Both the position numbers and the translations under genes were made by a program. From NCBI GenBank assembly GCA_038893995.1, contig JAWAQK010000006.1, positions 1 to 24,356 on the forward strand: a stretch of DNA of 24,356 nucleotides, written 5' to 3'. Below, piece after piece: positions 11,374 through 23,803 of the stretch (within the stretch, counting starts at the first letter, position 1; every line of letters begins with the position of its first letter). The notes beneath the pieces were generated by a model, which made no database searches, had not been told where the DNA came from, and worked only from the letters and a program-made list of their open reading frames with translations. The stretch is from Candidatus Thorarchaeota archaeon. Lineage in GTDB: Archaea > Asgardarchaeota > Thorarchaeia > Thorarchaeales > Thorarchaeaceae.

Positions 11374-11402
11374 TGATGTACATTCCTGTACATCAATGTA
11401 CT
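11374..11402. promoter_or_regulatory. Three phased TGTACA/TGTACT boxes, matching the TrpY TRP-box consensus
   Basis: TGTACA 11377-11382, TGTACA 11387-11392 and TGTACT 11397-11402, with a 10-bp period and 4-bp spacers. The first two form a perfect 9-bp inverted repeat, TGATGTACA-TTCC-TGTACATCA. They lie directly upstream of the trpB2 leader TATA box. Confidence 0.7.
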
Positions 11403-11410
11403 TAATAGGA

Positions 11411-11424
11411 CAATACTTATAAGG
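11411..11424 (+). promoter_or_regulatory. TATA-box promoter of the trpB2-1 leader transcript
   Basis: CAATACTTATAAGG, with TTATAA at 11417-11422. A near-identical CAATGCTTATAAGA sits at the equivalent position before trpB2-2. Confidence 0.72.
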
Positions 11425-11468
11425 GGGTTCACGGCATCGCCCGGTCGGTCTACCCTGAGGTGATTCGA

Positions 11469-11522
11469 ATGGTGAGCGTGTGTCTGCTCCACTGGTATTG
11501 GGGTCCGAGAGGACCCGTCTAG
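11469..11522 (+). CDS. Trp-containing leader peptide (uORF) of trpB2-1: MVSVCLLHWYWGPRGPV
   Basis: SD GAGGTGA (11457-11463), ATG 11469, two TGG codons (positions 9 and 11) and TAG 11520-11522. A same-length homolog lies upstream of the second trpB2. Confidence 0.75.
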   Translation: MVSVCLLHWYWGPRGPV

Positions 11523-11532
11523 TCAGCTCACC
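11497..11532 (+). repeat. 36-nt sequence repeated exactly at 22299-22334
   Basis: ATTGGGGTCCGAGAGGACCCGTCTAGTCAGCTCACC is present in both trpB2 leaders. Confidence 0.97.
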
Positions 11533-11682
11533 GTCCACCGAGGGTATCTCTTCTGTTTCTCTTGCGCGCTCGGCACCCACTGAGTGGAAGGGCGGATTGA
11601 GCTCTCAGATGTCAGTGGTCTCCGCACGGTACTCCATCAACATCTCAGGACAGACCACCTCAGAACAATGGTGAGATCCGAG

Positions 11683-12993
11683 ATGAAGACAGAATTCACA
11701 CGAGTGATCTTGAACCAAGAAGACCTTCCGAAGAACTATGTGAACATCGTACCGCATCTGAGAAGTCCTCTGCCCCCTCCCATCGATCCTCGCACGTCTC
11801 AGCCGATCGACCCCGAGGCGCTGAAGGCACTCTTTCCTGTCGAATGCATAAGACAGGAGGTGAGTACGGCCAGGGAGATCCGGATACCGGACGAACTCCG
11901 CGAGGCATACCTACAGATAGGACGTCCGACCCCACTCCAGAGAGCCGTGCATCTCGAGGCGGCCCTGAAGACACCAGCTAGGATATACTTCAAGCGAGAG
12001 GACACATCTCCAACTGGGAGCCACAAGCTCAATACAGCATTGGCACAGGCCTACTTCGCATCGAAGGAGGGTACTGAGAGGCTCGCCACGGAGACCGGTG
12101 CAGGGCAATGGGGGAGCGCTGTTGCGTACGCCGCGGCGCACTTCGGTCTGAAGGCCACCATCTACATGGTCAGTGCAAGCTACGAGCAGAAACCCTACCG
12201 AGGCATCATGATGAGGATGTATGGAGCCGATGTGACTCCCTCGCCATCCGACCGTACTGAGGTGGGTCGAAAGATCAGGGCTACTGACCCAAACCATCCC
12301 GGCTCTCTCGGGATAGCCATCAGCGAGGCTCTCGAAGACACCATGAATAGTCCAAACACCAAATACACACTCGGCTCGGTCCTGAATCATGTCCTGCTAC
12401 ATCAGACAGTGATCGGACAGGAGGTCGTCCAGCAGCTCAGGATGATTGGTGAGACTCCCGATGTGATAGTGGGATGTGTCGGCGGTGGTAGCAACTTTGC
12501 AGGCATGAGCTATCCCTTTCTGGCGCGGTCCGAATACCGTGATGTCGATTTCCTGGCCGTGGAACCTGTCGTTTGCGGAAAGATGACTAGGGGAGAGTAT
12601 CGTTACGACTATGGCGATTCTGCTGGCCTGACACCCATGTTGAAGATGCACACGCTCGGGGCAGACTTCACCCCGCCGCGGATTCATGCAGGAGGTCTCA
12701 GGTATCACGGTGTCGCTCCGACCATCAGTGCACTGATACTGGAGGGCCGCATCCGGCCAGTGGCATATGAGCAGGTCGAGGTGCTTGAGGCCGGCCGACT
12801 CTTCGCTCGTTCAGAGGGAATCGTGCCCGCTCCCGAGTCGTCTCACGCCATAAAGGCGGTCATTGATCTTGCCCTCAAGGCCAAGCAGGAGAAGCGGGAG
12901 CGTGTCATCGTGTTCAACCTCTCCGGTCACGGTCACTTCGACATGGCGGCCTACGGCTCTCTGATGGACGGGACGCTCGGCAGCGCAGCCTAA
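11683..12993 (+). CDS. trpB2: Tryptophan synthase beta chain, TrpB2 type (copy 1)
   Basis: PLP lysine motif [38 protein letters not shown], the TrpB2-specific HAGGLRYHG, and [12 protein letters not shown] 11683 follows GGTGAG and aligns with the copy 2 N-terminus; ATG 11668 is an alternative start. Confidence 0.95.
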
Positions 12994-13187
12994 TTTCTCC
13001 CGACATGTGGGCTGAAGGGCCTGTGACAGTCGCTGGGGTCCGCCTTGGGAAACCGGGGTGAACCCCTAATGACTCCTGCTGCGGGAATGTTCTTAATCTG
13101 CCGAGTAGGTCACCGGGGTCAGCAGCTCCGCATCTGTATCTTGTGTCTGAGATTCAGACATGTTCTCAACAGGGAGTGAAAGTCAGG

Positions 13188-16100
13188 ATGAAGACCGAGT
13201 GCATGGACATAGAGATAGTGGAGTATCGAGATGACTTGGCTGAGGCACTCGCCCACATGTACAACACTTGGGACACACTCTGGCCGACCGGATATACACG
13301 TGGGGTACCCTACACGGCCGAGAGGGTCAGAAAGGAACTTGGAACAATGAATGCAATATCCATCCTGATTGCGATCGACAGACAATCTGGACGCCCTGTC
13401 GGATCCTGCACGCTCCATGCCCACATGAGGGACACTGATGCTGCTTACATTGGAGTCTTGGGAGTGTCCCCTGAGGCTCTCAACAAGAGGGTTGGCAAGA
13501 GGTTGCTGCTCAGGGCAATCGAAGTAGCACTCGAACGTGGCTATGGTCGAGTTGACCTGAACACGTGGGCCGGTAATCTCAGAGCGGTACCTCTCTACAA
13601 GCGAGTGGGCATGATGTGGAATCCCGAAGGCATGGGCGTCACCATGGAAGACTATGTCCCTGCGATACTTGCACACCCACTCTGCAGAGGGTTCTTCTCA
13701 GGCACGAGTCCTGACGAGTGGTACAGTCTTCTTCGAAGGGAGATCAAACAGGCACCGGACGATCTGACCGTCGACGGGATGAGGGTCTACGAGTATAGGT
13801 TTGAGAGGGGAGATGACACCCTGACTGTCCGTGTTGACCGCCACTGCAAGGCAATATCCTCCGTCGAGAGTGTCGTGAGCGGTAAGAGACTCAGGGTCAG
13901 CACCAGACTTGCACACCACGATGTGCAGATAGGACTGAAGTCGCGACACATTCTTGAGATTGTCAATGGCACTGACCAGCAGCTGAAGGTGGCTGCCTCG
14001 CTCAAGGTCTTCGATGGCATATCGCTGGACGGCGTACCCAGTGCCGAATTCACTGTTGAACCGGGTGACCAAGTGACATGGGTGGTAACACTACGTCCTG
14101 ATGACAATGCACCCCTCTCAGTGGTCGGAAAGAGGACTCCCGCAATCATCACGAGTCTAGTAATAGATGGACTGGTATGTGAGCTCTCGACTGGACCATT
14201 CGTGCAACCTATCGCCGAGATAGTCAATGAGGAGAATGAGTGCATTATCGGTCCGGGTGGCGACGTCATCCTTCCGCTATCCATATTGAGTTCTGCGGAC
14301 ATGACACTGAGAGGCAAGATCGAGCTGGAGACGTCGCAAGCCGGTCTGACCATCAGTCCGTCCTCAGCAGACATCGTACTCTCTCCACGAGGCAGGGCCG
14401 GGGCTATGATACATGTAGTCGCTGACACGAGTCTTCCACACGGGGCGTATAGCATCAGGGCACGCCTCAGACTGGAACCAGACCGCACTTCTCCGGACGC
14501 TCCAATTGTCACCGGCTGGTCCAAGCTTCGCGTGTTCTGTCTCGCAGATATGAGAGCTGCTGTATCAACTGACGAGGTCAAGCGCGAGGTAGTGGTTGCC
14601 TCTGTCGGATACATTGCCAGATTGCAGGTCGAGGGAGGTGCGTTGATTGTCTATAGTCCAATCGGTTCTATGGATAGTCCGATCTTCAGAGCATCTGATG
14701 TAGGGCCTCCCTTTGGAATTGGCCCTCTGCGTCAGGCAGACCGCATCCCGAGAATAGCGGAGGATCCTCATCAGACGACTGTCGTGATGTCCGTGGATCA
14801 TCCCGAACGACCCCTGAGGCTTGAGGATCGATACATCTTCGAGCACAATGGCATGATCGTGCGGCATGAGATATGGGTCGAGAACACGGGTTCTGTTCCC
14901 GAGACGATTCAGGCCAGGGCGACGGGACGGTTGGGTGGGATCGGTCTCAGCCCCGGGGTGTGCTACGTACCTCTCGAGCACGGAGTTGTCCGGAACGATC
15001 TGAGTGACATCACCTTCTCGTATCCCGTGATCCCCAGCGACCCAACGAGGTTCAGTGAGGGATGGTTCGCTGTTGAGAGGACACAATCGTACGCCCTCGG
15101 CCAGTTCTGGAAACCCAGTGCAGTCGAAGAGGTGCAGTTGGCACAGGACCAAGTTGGCAACGTGGTGTTCCCGAGCACCACTCTGCCGCCCAGAGAGAGT
15201 CGCAAGGTCGGGGAGATCTGGATGGTCTTTGGCGCCCGTGATTGGAGAGAGGTCCAACAGATCTGGCGCCACAGAGTAGTTGGCGTGGTCACTGATGGAG
15301 TGGTGAAGAGTGGCATCTATCCATTGATGGCCCCTGTCGATGTCCTCGTCAGACCTGCGGTGATTCCTCATCTCCGCGAAACAGATGTGACCATCAAGTT
15401 GGCCACCCGAAGGGGCCCAACGGTAGTGAGCCTGACGGTCGAGCCTCCAGAGGGTTGGAGCTGCGACCCACAGACCATCAGTGAGCTGAGATTGGATGGC
15501 GAGAGTGACCTGAGCGTAGTCCTGACACCATCTGACGATGTTCCACGAGACCGGCTGGTCCATCGAGGTCGCGTACGGCTCATGGCAGCAGTCGAGAGAG
15601 TTGTCCCCCTGCGGGTGATCCAACTGGGACACGGAGGGTCTCTACAGGTGGTGGGTATCGAACGAGAGGGGCTTGAGGTATTCCAGGTGACCACTGATGC
15701 ATGTGAATTCCAGGTGTCAGCTGAGTACGGCGGCTGTATGATATCTCTCAGGAATTCTTCCAAGACCGAGTTCCTGAAGTCAAGCTTCCCAACACCGACT
15801 CCCAGAGAAGGCGGTTTTATGGAGAACTACTATGGGGGTGTGCAGCCAATTATATGGTCTGACAGCCCGTCCGACGGTCTCACAAGGGCCCGTACCAACA
15901 GGGAGAACATGGTTGCCAGAATGGTCGAGATTGGGTGTTGGAGGGGTGTCGAGGTGTCTTGGAAATCGGTGCTGCAGAGGATCATTCGCGGGATGGATGT
16001 CGCTGTCCAGTATCTCACCTGTGCAGGAAGTCCCCTTGTCCTGGTCAGAATGTTACTCCGCAACAGCACTGCGAGCCCGACGGCCATTAACCCGTCCTTC

Positions 16101-16466
16101 ATGACTGACATCGCGATTGACACGTCACCACCGGGCTGGGTAATGAGGACTGACTGGCTGGACGGGAGGTCCGACGTATACCTGGGGTCACTACCCATTG
16201 CGGCAGCTCCTTCCAGTCGAGTACTCCTTGTCAGACGTGGAGGGCCTATCTGTGACAGTGTTGCTATGATTGCAGACCCCGAGCAGTCACGAGTCATTGG
16301 TGTGTGCTTCCAAGACATGCTCATGCTTGGTGCGTTCGGAAAGATGTTGGTGTTGCCGGGCGAACACAGAGAACTTGTGCTATGCCTTGCAGTCAATATC
16401 TGTTCAGATGAGGACCTTCTGGACGTCCAGAATGCCCTGAGGGAGATCGCCAACTCCGTGAGGTGA
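13188..16466 (+). CDS. Large (~1,090 aa) protein with an N-terminal GNAT acetyltransferase domain followed by beta-rich/Ig-like domains
   Basis: GNAT acetyl-CoA motif A (YIGVLGVSPEALNKRVGKRLL) and motif B (WAGNLRAVPLYKRVG). ATG 13188 follows GGAGTGA; ATG 13203 is an alternative start. Confidence 0.85.
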   Translation: MKTECMDIEIVEYRDDLAEALAHMYNTWDTLWPTGYTRGVPYTAERVRKELGTMNAISILIAIDRQSGRPVGSCTLHAHMRDTDAAYIGVLGVSPEALNKRVGKRLLLRAIEVALERGYGRVDLNTWAGNLRAVPLYKRVGMMWNPEGMGVTMEDYVPAILAHPLCRGFFSGTSPDEWYSLLRREIKQAPDDLTVDGMRVYEYRFERGDDTLTVRVDRHCKAISSVESVVSGKRLRVSTRLAHHDVQIGLKSRHILEIVNGTDQQLKVAASLKVFDGISLDGVPSAEFTVEPGDQVTWVVTLRPDDNAPLSVVGKRTPAIITSLVIDGLVCELSTGPFVQPIAEIVNEENECIIGPGGDVILPLSILSSADMTLRGKIELETSQAGLTISPSSADIVLSPRGRAGAMIHVVADTSLPHGAYSIRARLRLEPDRTSPDAPIVTGWSKLRVFCLADMRAAVSTDEVKREVVVASVGYIARLQVEGGALIVYSPIGSMDSPIFRASDVGPPFGIGPLRQADRIPRIAEDPHQTTVVMSVDHPERPLRLEDRYIFEHNGMIVRHEIWVENTGSVPETIQARATGRLGGIGLSPGVCYVPLEHGVVRNDLSDITFSYPVIPSDPTRFSEGWFAVERTQSYALGQFWKPSAVEEVQLAQDQVGNVVFPSTTLPPRESRKVGEIWMVFGARDWREVQQIWRHRVVGVVTDGVVKSGIYPLMAPVDVLVRPAVIPHLRETDVTIKLATRRGPTVVSLTVEPPEGWSCDPQTISELRLDGESDLSVVLTPSDDVPRDRLVHRGRVRLMAAVERVVPLRVIQLGHGGSLQVVGIEREGLEVFQVTTDACEFQVSAEYGGCMISLRNSSKTEFLKSSFPTPTPREGGFMENYYGGVQPIIWSDSPSDGLTRARTNRENMVARMVEIGCWRGVEVSWKSVLQRIIRGMDVAVQYLTCAGSPLVLVRMLLRNSTASPTAINPSFMTDIAIDTSPPGWVMRTDWLDGRSDVYLGSLPIAAAPSSRVLLVRRGGPICDSVAMIADPEQSRVIGVCFQDMLMLGAFGKMLVLPGEHRELVLCLAVNICSDEDLLDVQNALREIANSVR

Positions 16467-22486: not shown

Positions 22487-23803
22487 ATGACCAGACCAAT
22501 ACGAGTTACACTTGGCATTGAAGACTTACCAAGAAGCTATGTGAATATCGTACCATACCTGAGGGAACCGCTTCCTCCCGCAGTTGACCCAGTGACATCC
22601 GAACCTGTCACTGTGGAGAGACTGTCTGCAGTATTCCCCACTGAGTGTGCGAGGCAGGAGTTGTGTACAGACCCGGAGATACCGATTCCAGAAGAACTCC
22701 GTGAGTCCTACATACAGATAGGTCGACCAACGCCCCTCCAGAGAGCAGTCCACCTCGAGCAGAAGCTCAGGACCCCGGCAAGGATCTATTTCAAGAGGGA
22801 AGACCTGTCTCCAACGGGGAGTCATAAGCTCAACACTGCTCTTGCACAGGCGTACTTTGCGCTGAAAGACGGTGCACAGCGCCTCACTGCAGAGACGGGA
22901 GCCGGACAATGGGGCTGTGCCGTCGCTCTTGCTGCATCACACTTTGGTCTTAGTGCCTCGATCTATATGGTGCGGACAAGCTTTGAGCAAAAGCCCTACA
23001 GGACATTCATGATGAGGATGTATGGTGCAGAAGTCATCCAGTCTCCATCGGAACTGACTGAGTCCGGCAAGAGGGTCCGTGCGAATTCCCCTGAACATCC
23101 CGGATCCATCGGCATTGCCATCAGCGAGGCCGTCGAAGACACGCTACACAGTCCTGGTACCAAGTACGCAAACGGTTCTGTGATGAACCACGTACTCCTT
23201 CACCAGACTGTCATAGGCCAGGAAGTGGTTCAACAACTGAGGAAGGTCGATGAGACGCCAGATGCAGTCGTGGGATGTGTGGGAGGCGGCAGCAACTTCG
23301 CAGGGATAAGCTATCCCATGATGGTCAGACCTGAATACAGAGATGTCAGCTTCATTGCGGTTGAACCTGATGCGTGCAATAAGATGACGAGAGGCGAGTA
23401 CCGGTATGACTTCATCGACTCAGCTGGTCTGCTCCCAAGGCTGAAGATGCACACACTCGGTGCAGACTTCACGCCAAGGCGAATACATGCGGGTGGACTC
23501 AGATATCACGGTGTGTCGCCCACGGTCAGCGTCCTCATCAATGAGCGACGAGTTCATCCCGTCGCCTATGACCAGGTGGCTGTCCTAGAGGCTGGCCGGC
23601 TCTTTGCCCAGACAGAGGGGATCGTCCCCGCTCCTGAGTCTTCCCACGCAATAAGAGCAGCCATTGACCTTGCGACTGCGGCTCGAAGAGATGACAGAGA
23701 GATGGTCATTGTCTTCAATCTCTCTGGTCATGGCCATTTTGACATGGGTGCCTATGGTATGCTCATGGATGGTGCACTGGCCATGCCCCCGCTCGCCGCA
23801 TGA
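22487..23803 (+). CDS. trpB2: Tryptophan synthase beta chain, TrpB2 type (copy 2, divergent)
   Basis: Motifs [39 protein letters not shown] and NLSGHGHFD; colinear with copy 1. Confidence 0.95.
   Translation: MTRPIRVTLGIEDLPRSYVNIVPYLREPLPPAVDPVTSEPVTVERLSAVFPTECARQELCTDPEIPIPEELRESYIQIGRPTPLQRAVHLEQKLRTPARIYFKREDLSPTGSHKLNTALAQAYFALKDGAQRLTAETGAGQWGCAVALAASHFGLSASIYMVRTSFEQKPYRTFMMRMYGAEVIQSPSELTESGKRVRANSPEHPGSIGIAISEAVEDTLHSPGTKYANGSVMNHVLLHQTVIGQEVVQQLRKVDETPDAVVGCVGGGSNFAGISYPMMVRPEYRDVSFIAVEPDACNKMTRGEYRYDFIDSAGLLPRLKMHTLGADFTPRRIHAGGLRYHGVSPTVSVLINERRVHPVAYDQVAVLEAGRLFAQTEGIVPAPESSHAIRAAIDLATAARRDDREMVIVFNLSGHGHFDMGAYGMLMDGALAMPPLAA

Follow-up and report, generated by a model that had tools for sequence, protein, structure and literature searches.

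Two overlapping reading frames in the trpB2 leaders of Thorarchaeota: a candidate translation-based tryptophan sensor

How is trpB2 controlled by the leader that precedes it in Thorarchaeota? The window analysed here, a stretch of 24,356 nucleotides from contig JAWAQK010000006.1 of a Candidatus Thorarchaeota archaeon (assembly GCA_038893995.1), contains two paralogous stand-alone trpB2 genes, 11683-12993 and 22487-23803, which are ~72% identical and match NF009057 with 672 and 627 bits, respectively. Each copy has a TATA box and a leader of ~215-230 nt, and the two leaders share a common core of ~90 nt (77% identical, with 36-40 nt identical). TrpA (PF00290) and anthranilate synthase component I (TrpE, PF00425) are both absent from the genome of the window, which is 91% complete. 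Because the organism's own genome lacks these enzymes, TrpB2, which uses indole and serine, looks like its sole route to tryptophan, and Trp is probably made only from scavenged indole. A preliminary description of the copy 1 leader had proposed an attenuator scheme, in which two mutually exclusive helices (1:2 and 2:3) are kept in both copies by compensatory changes. The comparative analysis reported here indicates that this proposal is only partly right, and that the leader looks like a variant of leader-ORF sensing, not the stop-hairpin switch of bacteria. The gene and its ribosome binding site are as follows:

11683-12993, plus strand: trpB2-1, encoding a TrpB-like PLP enzyme (NF009057, 672 bits); the start was chosen from an N-terminal alignment with homologues.
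11670-11674, plus strand: Shine-Dalgarno (SD) sequence GGUGA of trpB2-1; an alternative in-frame ATG lies at 11668.

Searches by BLAST, by exact pattern and with a covariance model built on the 75-nt core, the last of which had been suggested in the preliminary description, located the leader in 60 of the 86 genomes of the family, with true matches always before trpB2. The homologous loci carry the name of Thorarchaeota-type Asgard archaea. Raw matches covered 15 of the 16 genera; those in g16 and g4 proved false, and once false matches were removed 13 genera remained in addition to that of the window. Ten low-scoring covariance-model matches (L088-L092 and L094-L098) were discarded as false positives inside unrelated coding regions, which left 57 true leaders, 39 of them non-redundant and all upstream of trpB2. 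Applied to 400 Asgard genomes and 185,579 species genomes, the exact core pattern gave no match outside this family, and a metagenome scan with an exact pattern added two more leaders only. Comparison with Rfam, which had also been proposed as a check on novelty, returned no match in the window at the gathering score; the sole sub-threshold match was a chance lncRNA (22 bits versus a gathering score of 70). One genome, G064, contains two leaders (L055 and L083) of sequence types typical of two different genera, which could reflect a second trpB2 copy or a mixed bin.

The 5′ part of the copy 1 leader contains three elements:

11457-11464, plus strand: SD-like sequence GAGGUGAU, 4 nt ahead of the start codon of the uORF.
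11469-11522, plus strand: uORF1, MVSVCLLHWYWGPRGPV, 17 codons followed by UAG, with Trp codons at 11493-11495 and 11499-11501.
11501-11516, plus strand: RNA hairpin GGGUCC-GAGA-GGACCC, which begins exactly 5 nt after the first Trp codon.

Throughout the family the uORF is 16-18 codons long, is led by an SD (a GAGG/GAGU motif lies 4-10 nt ahead of its AUG in all homologues) and carries an almost invariant CCAAUGG, which lies seven to nine codons after the AUG. The distance between the AUG and the Trp codon changes only in 3-nt steps among genera (17, 20, 23 or 26 nt before CCAAUGG). Since the upstream length varies by whole codons, UGG is always read as Trp within the uORF, whose frame is thus conserved. 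Every genus has the first Trp codon, and uORF1 holds one or two Trp codons in every lineage. Copy 1 of the window has two; copy 2 has one, as the first has been lost (UGU) and only the second is kept, with no spacer before the hairpin. Synonymous positions flanking the Trp codon are fixed: CAA encodes the Gln before UGG in every genus except that of the window (CAA accounts for 0-67% of Gln codons in the adjoining gene), and the codon preceding Gln ends in C whatever the amino acid (GGC accounts for 10-30% of Gly codons). In the genome of the window the P-site codon is CAC (His), and the AUG that overlaps UGG in other genera is CUG in both copies. These two changes, together with the loss of the first Trp codon in copy 2, make the window's own leaders atypical members of the family. 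The stop codon of the uORF directly follows the hairpin in most genera and comes a few codons later in three; genera g5, g8 and g9, which lack the canonical stop, end 4-9 codons later with unrelated tails. In a second species of genus g13 (L021/L042), the loop GUGA gives an in-frame UGA after Trp-Gly-Pro, with the later UAG still in place, and the contig continues for only another 68 nt.

The RNAalifold consensus across leaders consists of the hairpin only. It begins 5 nt after UGG in nearly all leaders, within the 5-9 nt at which stimulatory structures are found, a distance that by geometry places it at the mRNA entrance when UGG occupies the A site of the ribosome. In copy 1 it forms a perfect stem of 6 bp, followed by Val and UAG, with a pairing probability of ~1 in all folds. 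The stem covaries across leaders (GCGUCC/GGACGC, GGCUCC/GGAGCC, GGGCC/GGCCC and variants of 8-9 bp) with frequent U.G pairs, and the loop is free (GAGA, GUGA, ACGA, UACG, CGCG, UGUG, CAGG and 6-nt variants). The peptide encoded by the arms shifts when the stem is compensated (for example in genus g12), which argues for selection on the RNA. GPxGPV was rejected as the selected feature because it becomes GRRRPV where the stem is compensated. A GNRA loop was rejected because the loop sequence is not conserved, and a DNA palindrome for a transcription factor was rejected because U.G pairs recur, stem length is variable and the position relative to the codon is fixed.

The covariation of the hairpin arms also bears on an alternative reading of uORF1 as an arrest peptide similar to TnaC, where free Trp would stall termination and the parked ribosome would block a second frame downstream (ORF2, see below) until low Trp releases it. 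TnaC uses W12 and P24-stop. The leaders resemble it in having a small uORF with a conserved Trp, which in most lineages is placed at a fixed nine codons from the stop with Pro at -2, and the sign of the response would be right. However, the peptide tail is not conserved as in TnaC: the residues between Trp and the stop vary without restraint, with R, T, A, V or even a stop at the same positions and RR in place of GP, g5, g8 and g9 do not keep the canonical stop, and hairpin arms that covary at the RNA level account for the Gly-Pro pairs. An arrest peptide is therefore quite improbable.

The preliminary description centred on two further pairings, which share segment 2 (coordinates from copy 1):

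11525-11536, plus strand: segment 2, after the uORF stop, which pairs with 11469-11477 (helix 1:2) or with 11590-11603 (helix 2:3).
11590-11603, plus strand: segment 3 of helix 2:3, inside ORF2 and specific to copy 1 (p=0.015).

On re-reading the sequence, all of the coordinates given there were correct. Helix 1:2, between AUGGUGAGC (11469-11477) and GCUCACCGU (11526-11534), has 9 bp including one G.U (-13.7 kcal/mol), and helix 2:3 in copy 1, between 11525-11536 and 11590-11603, has 12 bp with a 2-nt bulge (-17.2 kcal/mol). The pairing CCGAG/CUCGG at 11538-42/11569-73 is present as described, and a 6-bp stem was found inside the coordinates of a separate stem placed at 11603-12/11640-49. Mutual exclusivity was also borne out in copy 1, where the length of the transcript decides which helix forms: helix 1:2 has a probability near 1 in RNA cut just beyond segment 2, and helix 2:3 reaches a probability near 0.99 in the full leader, once segment 3 and the far 3′ part are added. 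The claim that both helices form in both copies holds for helix 1:2, which in copy 2 gains further pairs from flanking bases that differ from those of copy 1 (-21 to -27 kcal/mol). It does not hold for helix 2:3, of which only the unchanged common core AGCUCA/UGAGCU is left in copy 2 (6 bp, -7.8 kcal/mol). Against shuffled partners, helix 1:2 gave p=0.026 in copy 1 and p=0.002 in copy 2, and helix 2:3 gave p=0.015 and p=0.12, respectively. The supposed compensatory changes were not recovered: none supports helix 2:3, and for helix 1:2 there is a single one-sided change (U.G to U-A) in addition to the extensions from different flanks.

Analysis of the homologues separates the two helices further. 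The segment after the uORF stop is complementary to the uORF start region with p<0.05 in 8 of the 39 non-redundant leaders (Fisher 3e-6), and to the CCAAUGG region in 7 of the 39 (Fisher 8e-5), where the duplex tests are register-free and the p-values are optimistic because the leaders are related by descent. The paired sequences differ between genera, as with AUGGCGAGC and GCUUGCUAU in the metagenome lineage, and these results support a 1:2-type helix enclosing the uORF as a recurrent, register-variable feature. For helix 2:3 there is no trend in the homologues (Fisher p ~0.3 over independent lineages, 11 other leaders). A conserved 2:3 antiterminator was rejected on the duplex-versus-shuffle tests, which cover 12 leaders, and the helix in copy 1 is no more than a local addition specific to that lineage. 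The folding energy of the whole leader is within chance (z -1.40 for copy 1 and -0.62 for copy 2), and a global leader structure was rejected on these scores. Selection on structure, as originally suggested, can thus be upheld for the hairpin after the Trp codon and for the 1:2-type helix, but not for helix 2:3 or the fold of the leader as a whole.

These results largely refute a classical ribosome-mediated transcription attenuator, in which a ribosome stalled on the Trp codons would prevent helix 1:2, helix 2:3 would form and a terminator would be prevented. Such a scheme draws on the exclusive pairing of 1:2 and 2:3 with transcript length in copy 1 and on the recurrence of 1:2-type helices in the family, but helix 2:3 is not conserved and the Trp codons lie outside segment 1. 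The preliminary description had found no clean 3:4 terminator in copy 1, and none was found on re-folding either. The longest T-run averages 3.92 per leader versus 3.84 in shuffles (3 in copy 1 and 2 in copy 2), and an oligo-T terminator was rejected for this lack of enrichment. An attenuator would also leave unexplained an open -1 frame and its end at the trpB2 start codon, which are described below, and we regard it as highly improbable. Masking of the trpB2 ribosome binding site was likewise rejected as a consistent feature, as its pairing probability ranges from 0.28 to 0.71 across leaders. The SD region of the uORF, CUGAGGUG (11455-11462), is perfectly complementary to CACCUCAG (11656-11663), which lies ~20 nt before the trpB2 SD, and the minimum-energy fold of the complete copy 1 leader joins the two; in copy 2 the 5′ end is likewise closed onto a stretch ~30-50 nt ahead of the trpB2 start.

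Beyond the uORF, it is mainly a reading frame that is constrained, and not a fold. In copy 1 the following features define this frame:

11492-11674, plus strand: ORF2, in the -1 frame relative to uORF1 and open from 11459; the codon at 11492-94 is CUG.
11672-11674, plus strand: UGA that ends ORF2 in copy 1, located within the trpB2 SD, 8 nt ahead of the start codon.
11598-11667, plus strand: blocks common to copy 2, namely TGAGCTCT (11598-605), AGTGGTCTCCG (11614-24) and CAGAACA (11661-67), in the -1 frame in both copies.

In 37 leaders, counted from 30 nt after the Trp codon to 9 nt before the trpB2 start, there are 5 stops in frame -1, 85 in frame 0 and 111 in frame +1. In nearly all leaders the -1 frame stays open, for 50-70 codons up to the trpB2 start, for which the product of shuffle probabilities is ~6e-8 over eight lineages with unalignable spacers; in the window copies alone an open frame is not improbable (P 0.43 and 0.33). 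ORF2 ends within about -10 to +20 nt of the trpB2 start in most leaders, and its stop overlaps the start codon as ATGA or GTGA in at least 11. The first base of the UGA lies 11 nt upstream of the A of the trpB2 ATG in copy 1, and ORF2 of copy 2 ends 32 nt beyond the ATG. Elsewhere ORF2 ends 20-85 nt before the trpB2 start (four leaders) or extends 16-116 nt into trpB2 out of frame (several leaders). A 1-nt indel between two congeners leaves the frame still open to the trpB2 start.

A conserved small protein was rejected as the product of ORF2. Substitutions between close relatives are spread evenly over its three codon positions (20, 14 and 21, versus 16, 17 and 134 in trpB2), and neither spacer sequences nor ORF2 peptides can be aligned between genera. 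Judged from these sequence comparisons, selection is on the frame of ORF2 and not on its peptide. The motifs TGAGCTCT and AGTRGTCTCCG, cited earlier as retained in both leaders and as a sign of structure, are indeed present in both. The four blocks common to copies 1 and 2 differ in spacing by 24, 6 and 30 nt, all multiples of three, and in either copy the two motifs cited as retained translate in the -1 frame as Leu-Ser-Ser and Val-Val-Ser. The differences in multiples of three indicate that these motifs are in-frame remnants of a translated spacer.

The promoter provides a further indication of the signal to which trpB2 responds. It contains two elements:

11377-11402, plus strand: three TGTACA-type boxes with 10 bp phasing (11377-82, 11387-92 and 11397-402, the last TGTACT), upstream of the TATA box.
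11416-11423, plus strand: TATA box CTTATAAG, kept in both copies and in homologues.

Transcription is expected to start near 11445-11450, given the usual archaeal spacing. The TGTACA boxes are present in copy 1 and absent from copy 2. Phased TGTACA boxes also stand before the TATA box in homologous leaders of other genera (L014, L017-L020, L022 and L033), and in many genera trpB2 is preceded by two to three TGTACA boxes, a ATGCGTAA-like motif and the TATA box, in that order. We take the TGTACA boxes to be the TRP boxes of the Methanothermobacter TrpY work. They are probably the operator of a TrpY-like repressor, which suggests that such a repressor acts alongside the leader. TrpY binds TRP boxes, and beyond this repressor little is known about the regulation of Trp supply in archaea (PMC6737238). 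With TrpB2 as the sole route to Trp and TrpY-type boxes in its promoter, induction of trpB2 on Trp starvation is to be expected.

A mechanism is proposed where the leader is a translation-based Trp sensor built from two overlapping frames, and a starved ribosome is diverted from uORF1 into the -1 frame; we assign this reading a probability of about 0.5. When Trp-tRNA is plentiful, ribosomes would complete the uORF and leave, the segment after the stop would pair back onto the uORF start as helix 1:2, and the spacer would remain untranslated, with poor expression of trpB2. When Trp-tRNA is scarce, the ribosome would wait at UGG against the hairpin and be diverted into the -1 frame, either by slipping back one base or, once the stalled ribosome has been split, by restarting on the overlapping AUG. 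By continuing through segment 2 in the -1 frame, it would keep the uORF start from being closed by helix 1:2. The diverted ribosome would then translate the spacer and end at the trpB2 start, where it could restart or open the site, and output would rise. As expected of a frameshift, the -1 frame is nearly free of stops beyond the 0-frame stop across the 37 leaders, and as expected of coupled cistrons, ORF2 ends at or overlapping the trpB2 start in most leaders. Coupling between ORF2 and trpB2 may not be needed, since the trpB2 ribosome binding site is not consistently buried.

At the site of the proposed diversion the second frame overlaps the Trp codon, reading A-UG-G, and the sequence C-CAA-UGG (C-CAC-UGG in the window) does not provide the slippery heptamer X XXY YYZ. 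A -1 slip would leave the Gln tRNA of the P site re-paired at only two of three positions (C-CAA to CCA) with a mismatch in the middle, and the CAC (His) codon of the window would re-pair worse than CAA. The AUG inside CCAAUGG is invariant in 12 genera and the metagenome lineage, and is CUG in the copies of the window. This AUG has no SD, lies inside the translated uORF and has the hairpin at +10, which disfavours independent initiation there. The thorarchaeal trpB2 leaders may nevertheless represent a natural starvation-triggered recoding switch, acting by slip or by restart on the overlapping AUG, and we advance this view tentatively.

Initiation at the same AUG could also be turned to the opposite effect. 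ORF2 might be started there independently, or by backward re-initiation after uORF1, and a starved ribosome would block it. Such a model would account for the invariance of the AUG, including the synonymous third base of CAA, and for those leaders in which ORF2 runs 16-116 nt into trpB2. Occlusion of a ribosome binding site by a uORF is known in bacteria (PMC13285730). As starvation would lower ORF2 translation, a rise in trpB2 would need ORF2 to be inhibitory by occlusion, as is ATF4 uORF2, and a sensible response would thus require two sign inversions. ORF2 does resemble ATF4 uORF2 in its length and in its out-of-frame overlap with the main start; unlike ATF4, its ATGA-type stop/start overlaps resemble prokaryotic positive coupling, of which they are a hallmark. 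Moreover, the AUG is the one element missing from both window copies, where all else is kept, and the lack of an SD and the hairpin at +10 speak against this model as well. We therefore consider it unlikely.

Another alternative concerns the step that follows entry into ORF2. FttA gives polarity in archaea, and ribosomes translating ORF2, with entry set by the Trp codon, could shield the RNA from FttA/aCPSF1-type termination or decay. A frame that is open while its peptide is unconstrained would suit this role, as would pyrimidine-rich leaders and a trpB2 ribosome binding site that is not clearly masked. However, T-tracts are not enriched, and the close fit between the ORF2 stop and the trpB2 start codon is indicative of translational coupling. 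Anti-polarity would in any case be a variant of the output step of the two-frame sensor and not a separate sensor, and as the explanation of the leader it appears improbable.

The two-frame sensor proposed here can be compared with several known systems. Like bacterial trpL attenuation, it has a short, SD-led ORF containing Trp codons in the leader of a gene for Trp synthesis, the likely sensor is where the ribosome stands on these codons, and a helix links the leader ORF to the segment after its stop. Unlike trpL, the thorarchaeal leader has no terminator hairpin, U-run or conserved antiterminator; a hairpin in fixed position comes after its one or two Trp codons, a second, overlapping frame that is coupled to the gene takes up the entire spacer, and its host is an archaeon. 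The nearest regulatory case is the ketolide-induced frameshift in the ermC leader, ermCL (PMC5009743). In both, as proposed for the thorarchaeal leader, ribosomes leaving the leader frame would pass its stop into the spacer and switch on the gene, and no canonical slippery site is needed. The trigger in Thorarchaeota would be a starved Trp codon, not a drug; further differences from ermCL are the -1 frame open for 50-70 codons, the hairpin at the distance of a frameshift stimulator, and ribosome binding site masking that is not evident. With the -1 frameshift signals of dnaX, IS elements and viral gag-pol, the leader shares a -1 frame that is conserved as open and a stable structure that follows the A-site codon by 5 nt. 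Unlike these, it lacks the X XXY YYZ heptamer, the sequence of its product is irrelevant, and its purpose would be regulatory.

According to a review of recoding, no productive use of hungry-codon frameshifting is known (PMC5009743), and our literature search found no archaeal Trp leader peptide or leader-peptide sensor. If the proposed mechanism is correct, a hungry codon would for the first time be seen to serve gene control productively, and archaea would have their first described amino-acid sensor of the leader-peptide type. If the -1 hand-over is real, it would answer the recoding question on the productive use of hungry codons, in the archaeal lineage closest to eukaryotes. The leader is a well-defined, family-wide element with ~50 natural variants, in which the Trp codon, the hairpin, the spacer frame and the stop/start overlap can be mutated separately. 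It also provides a caution for annotation, as a "structured 5′ UTR" can be a translated spacer.

Two minor observations were made in the course of this work. The leader L093 (genus g7) is degenerate and may be decaying: its uORF has no AUG, a stop directly follows the Trp codon, the hairpin carries a mismatch and ORF2 falls 85 nt short of trpB2. Downstream of trpB2-1 in the window, an ORF of 1107 aa (13143-16466) combines an N-terminal GNAT acetyltransferase domain with weak NPCBM-associated and ASH-like repeats, which is an unusual combination.
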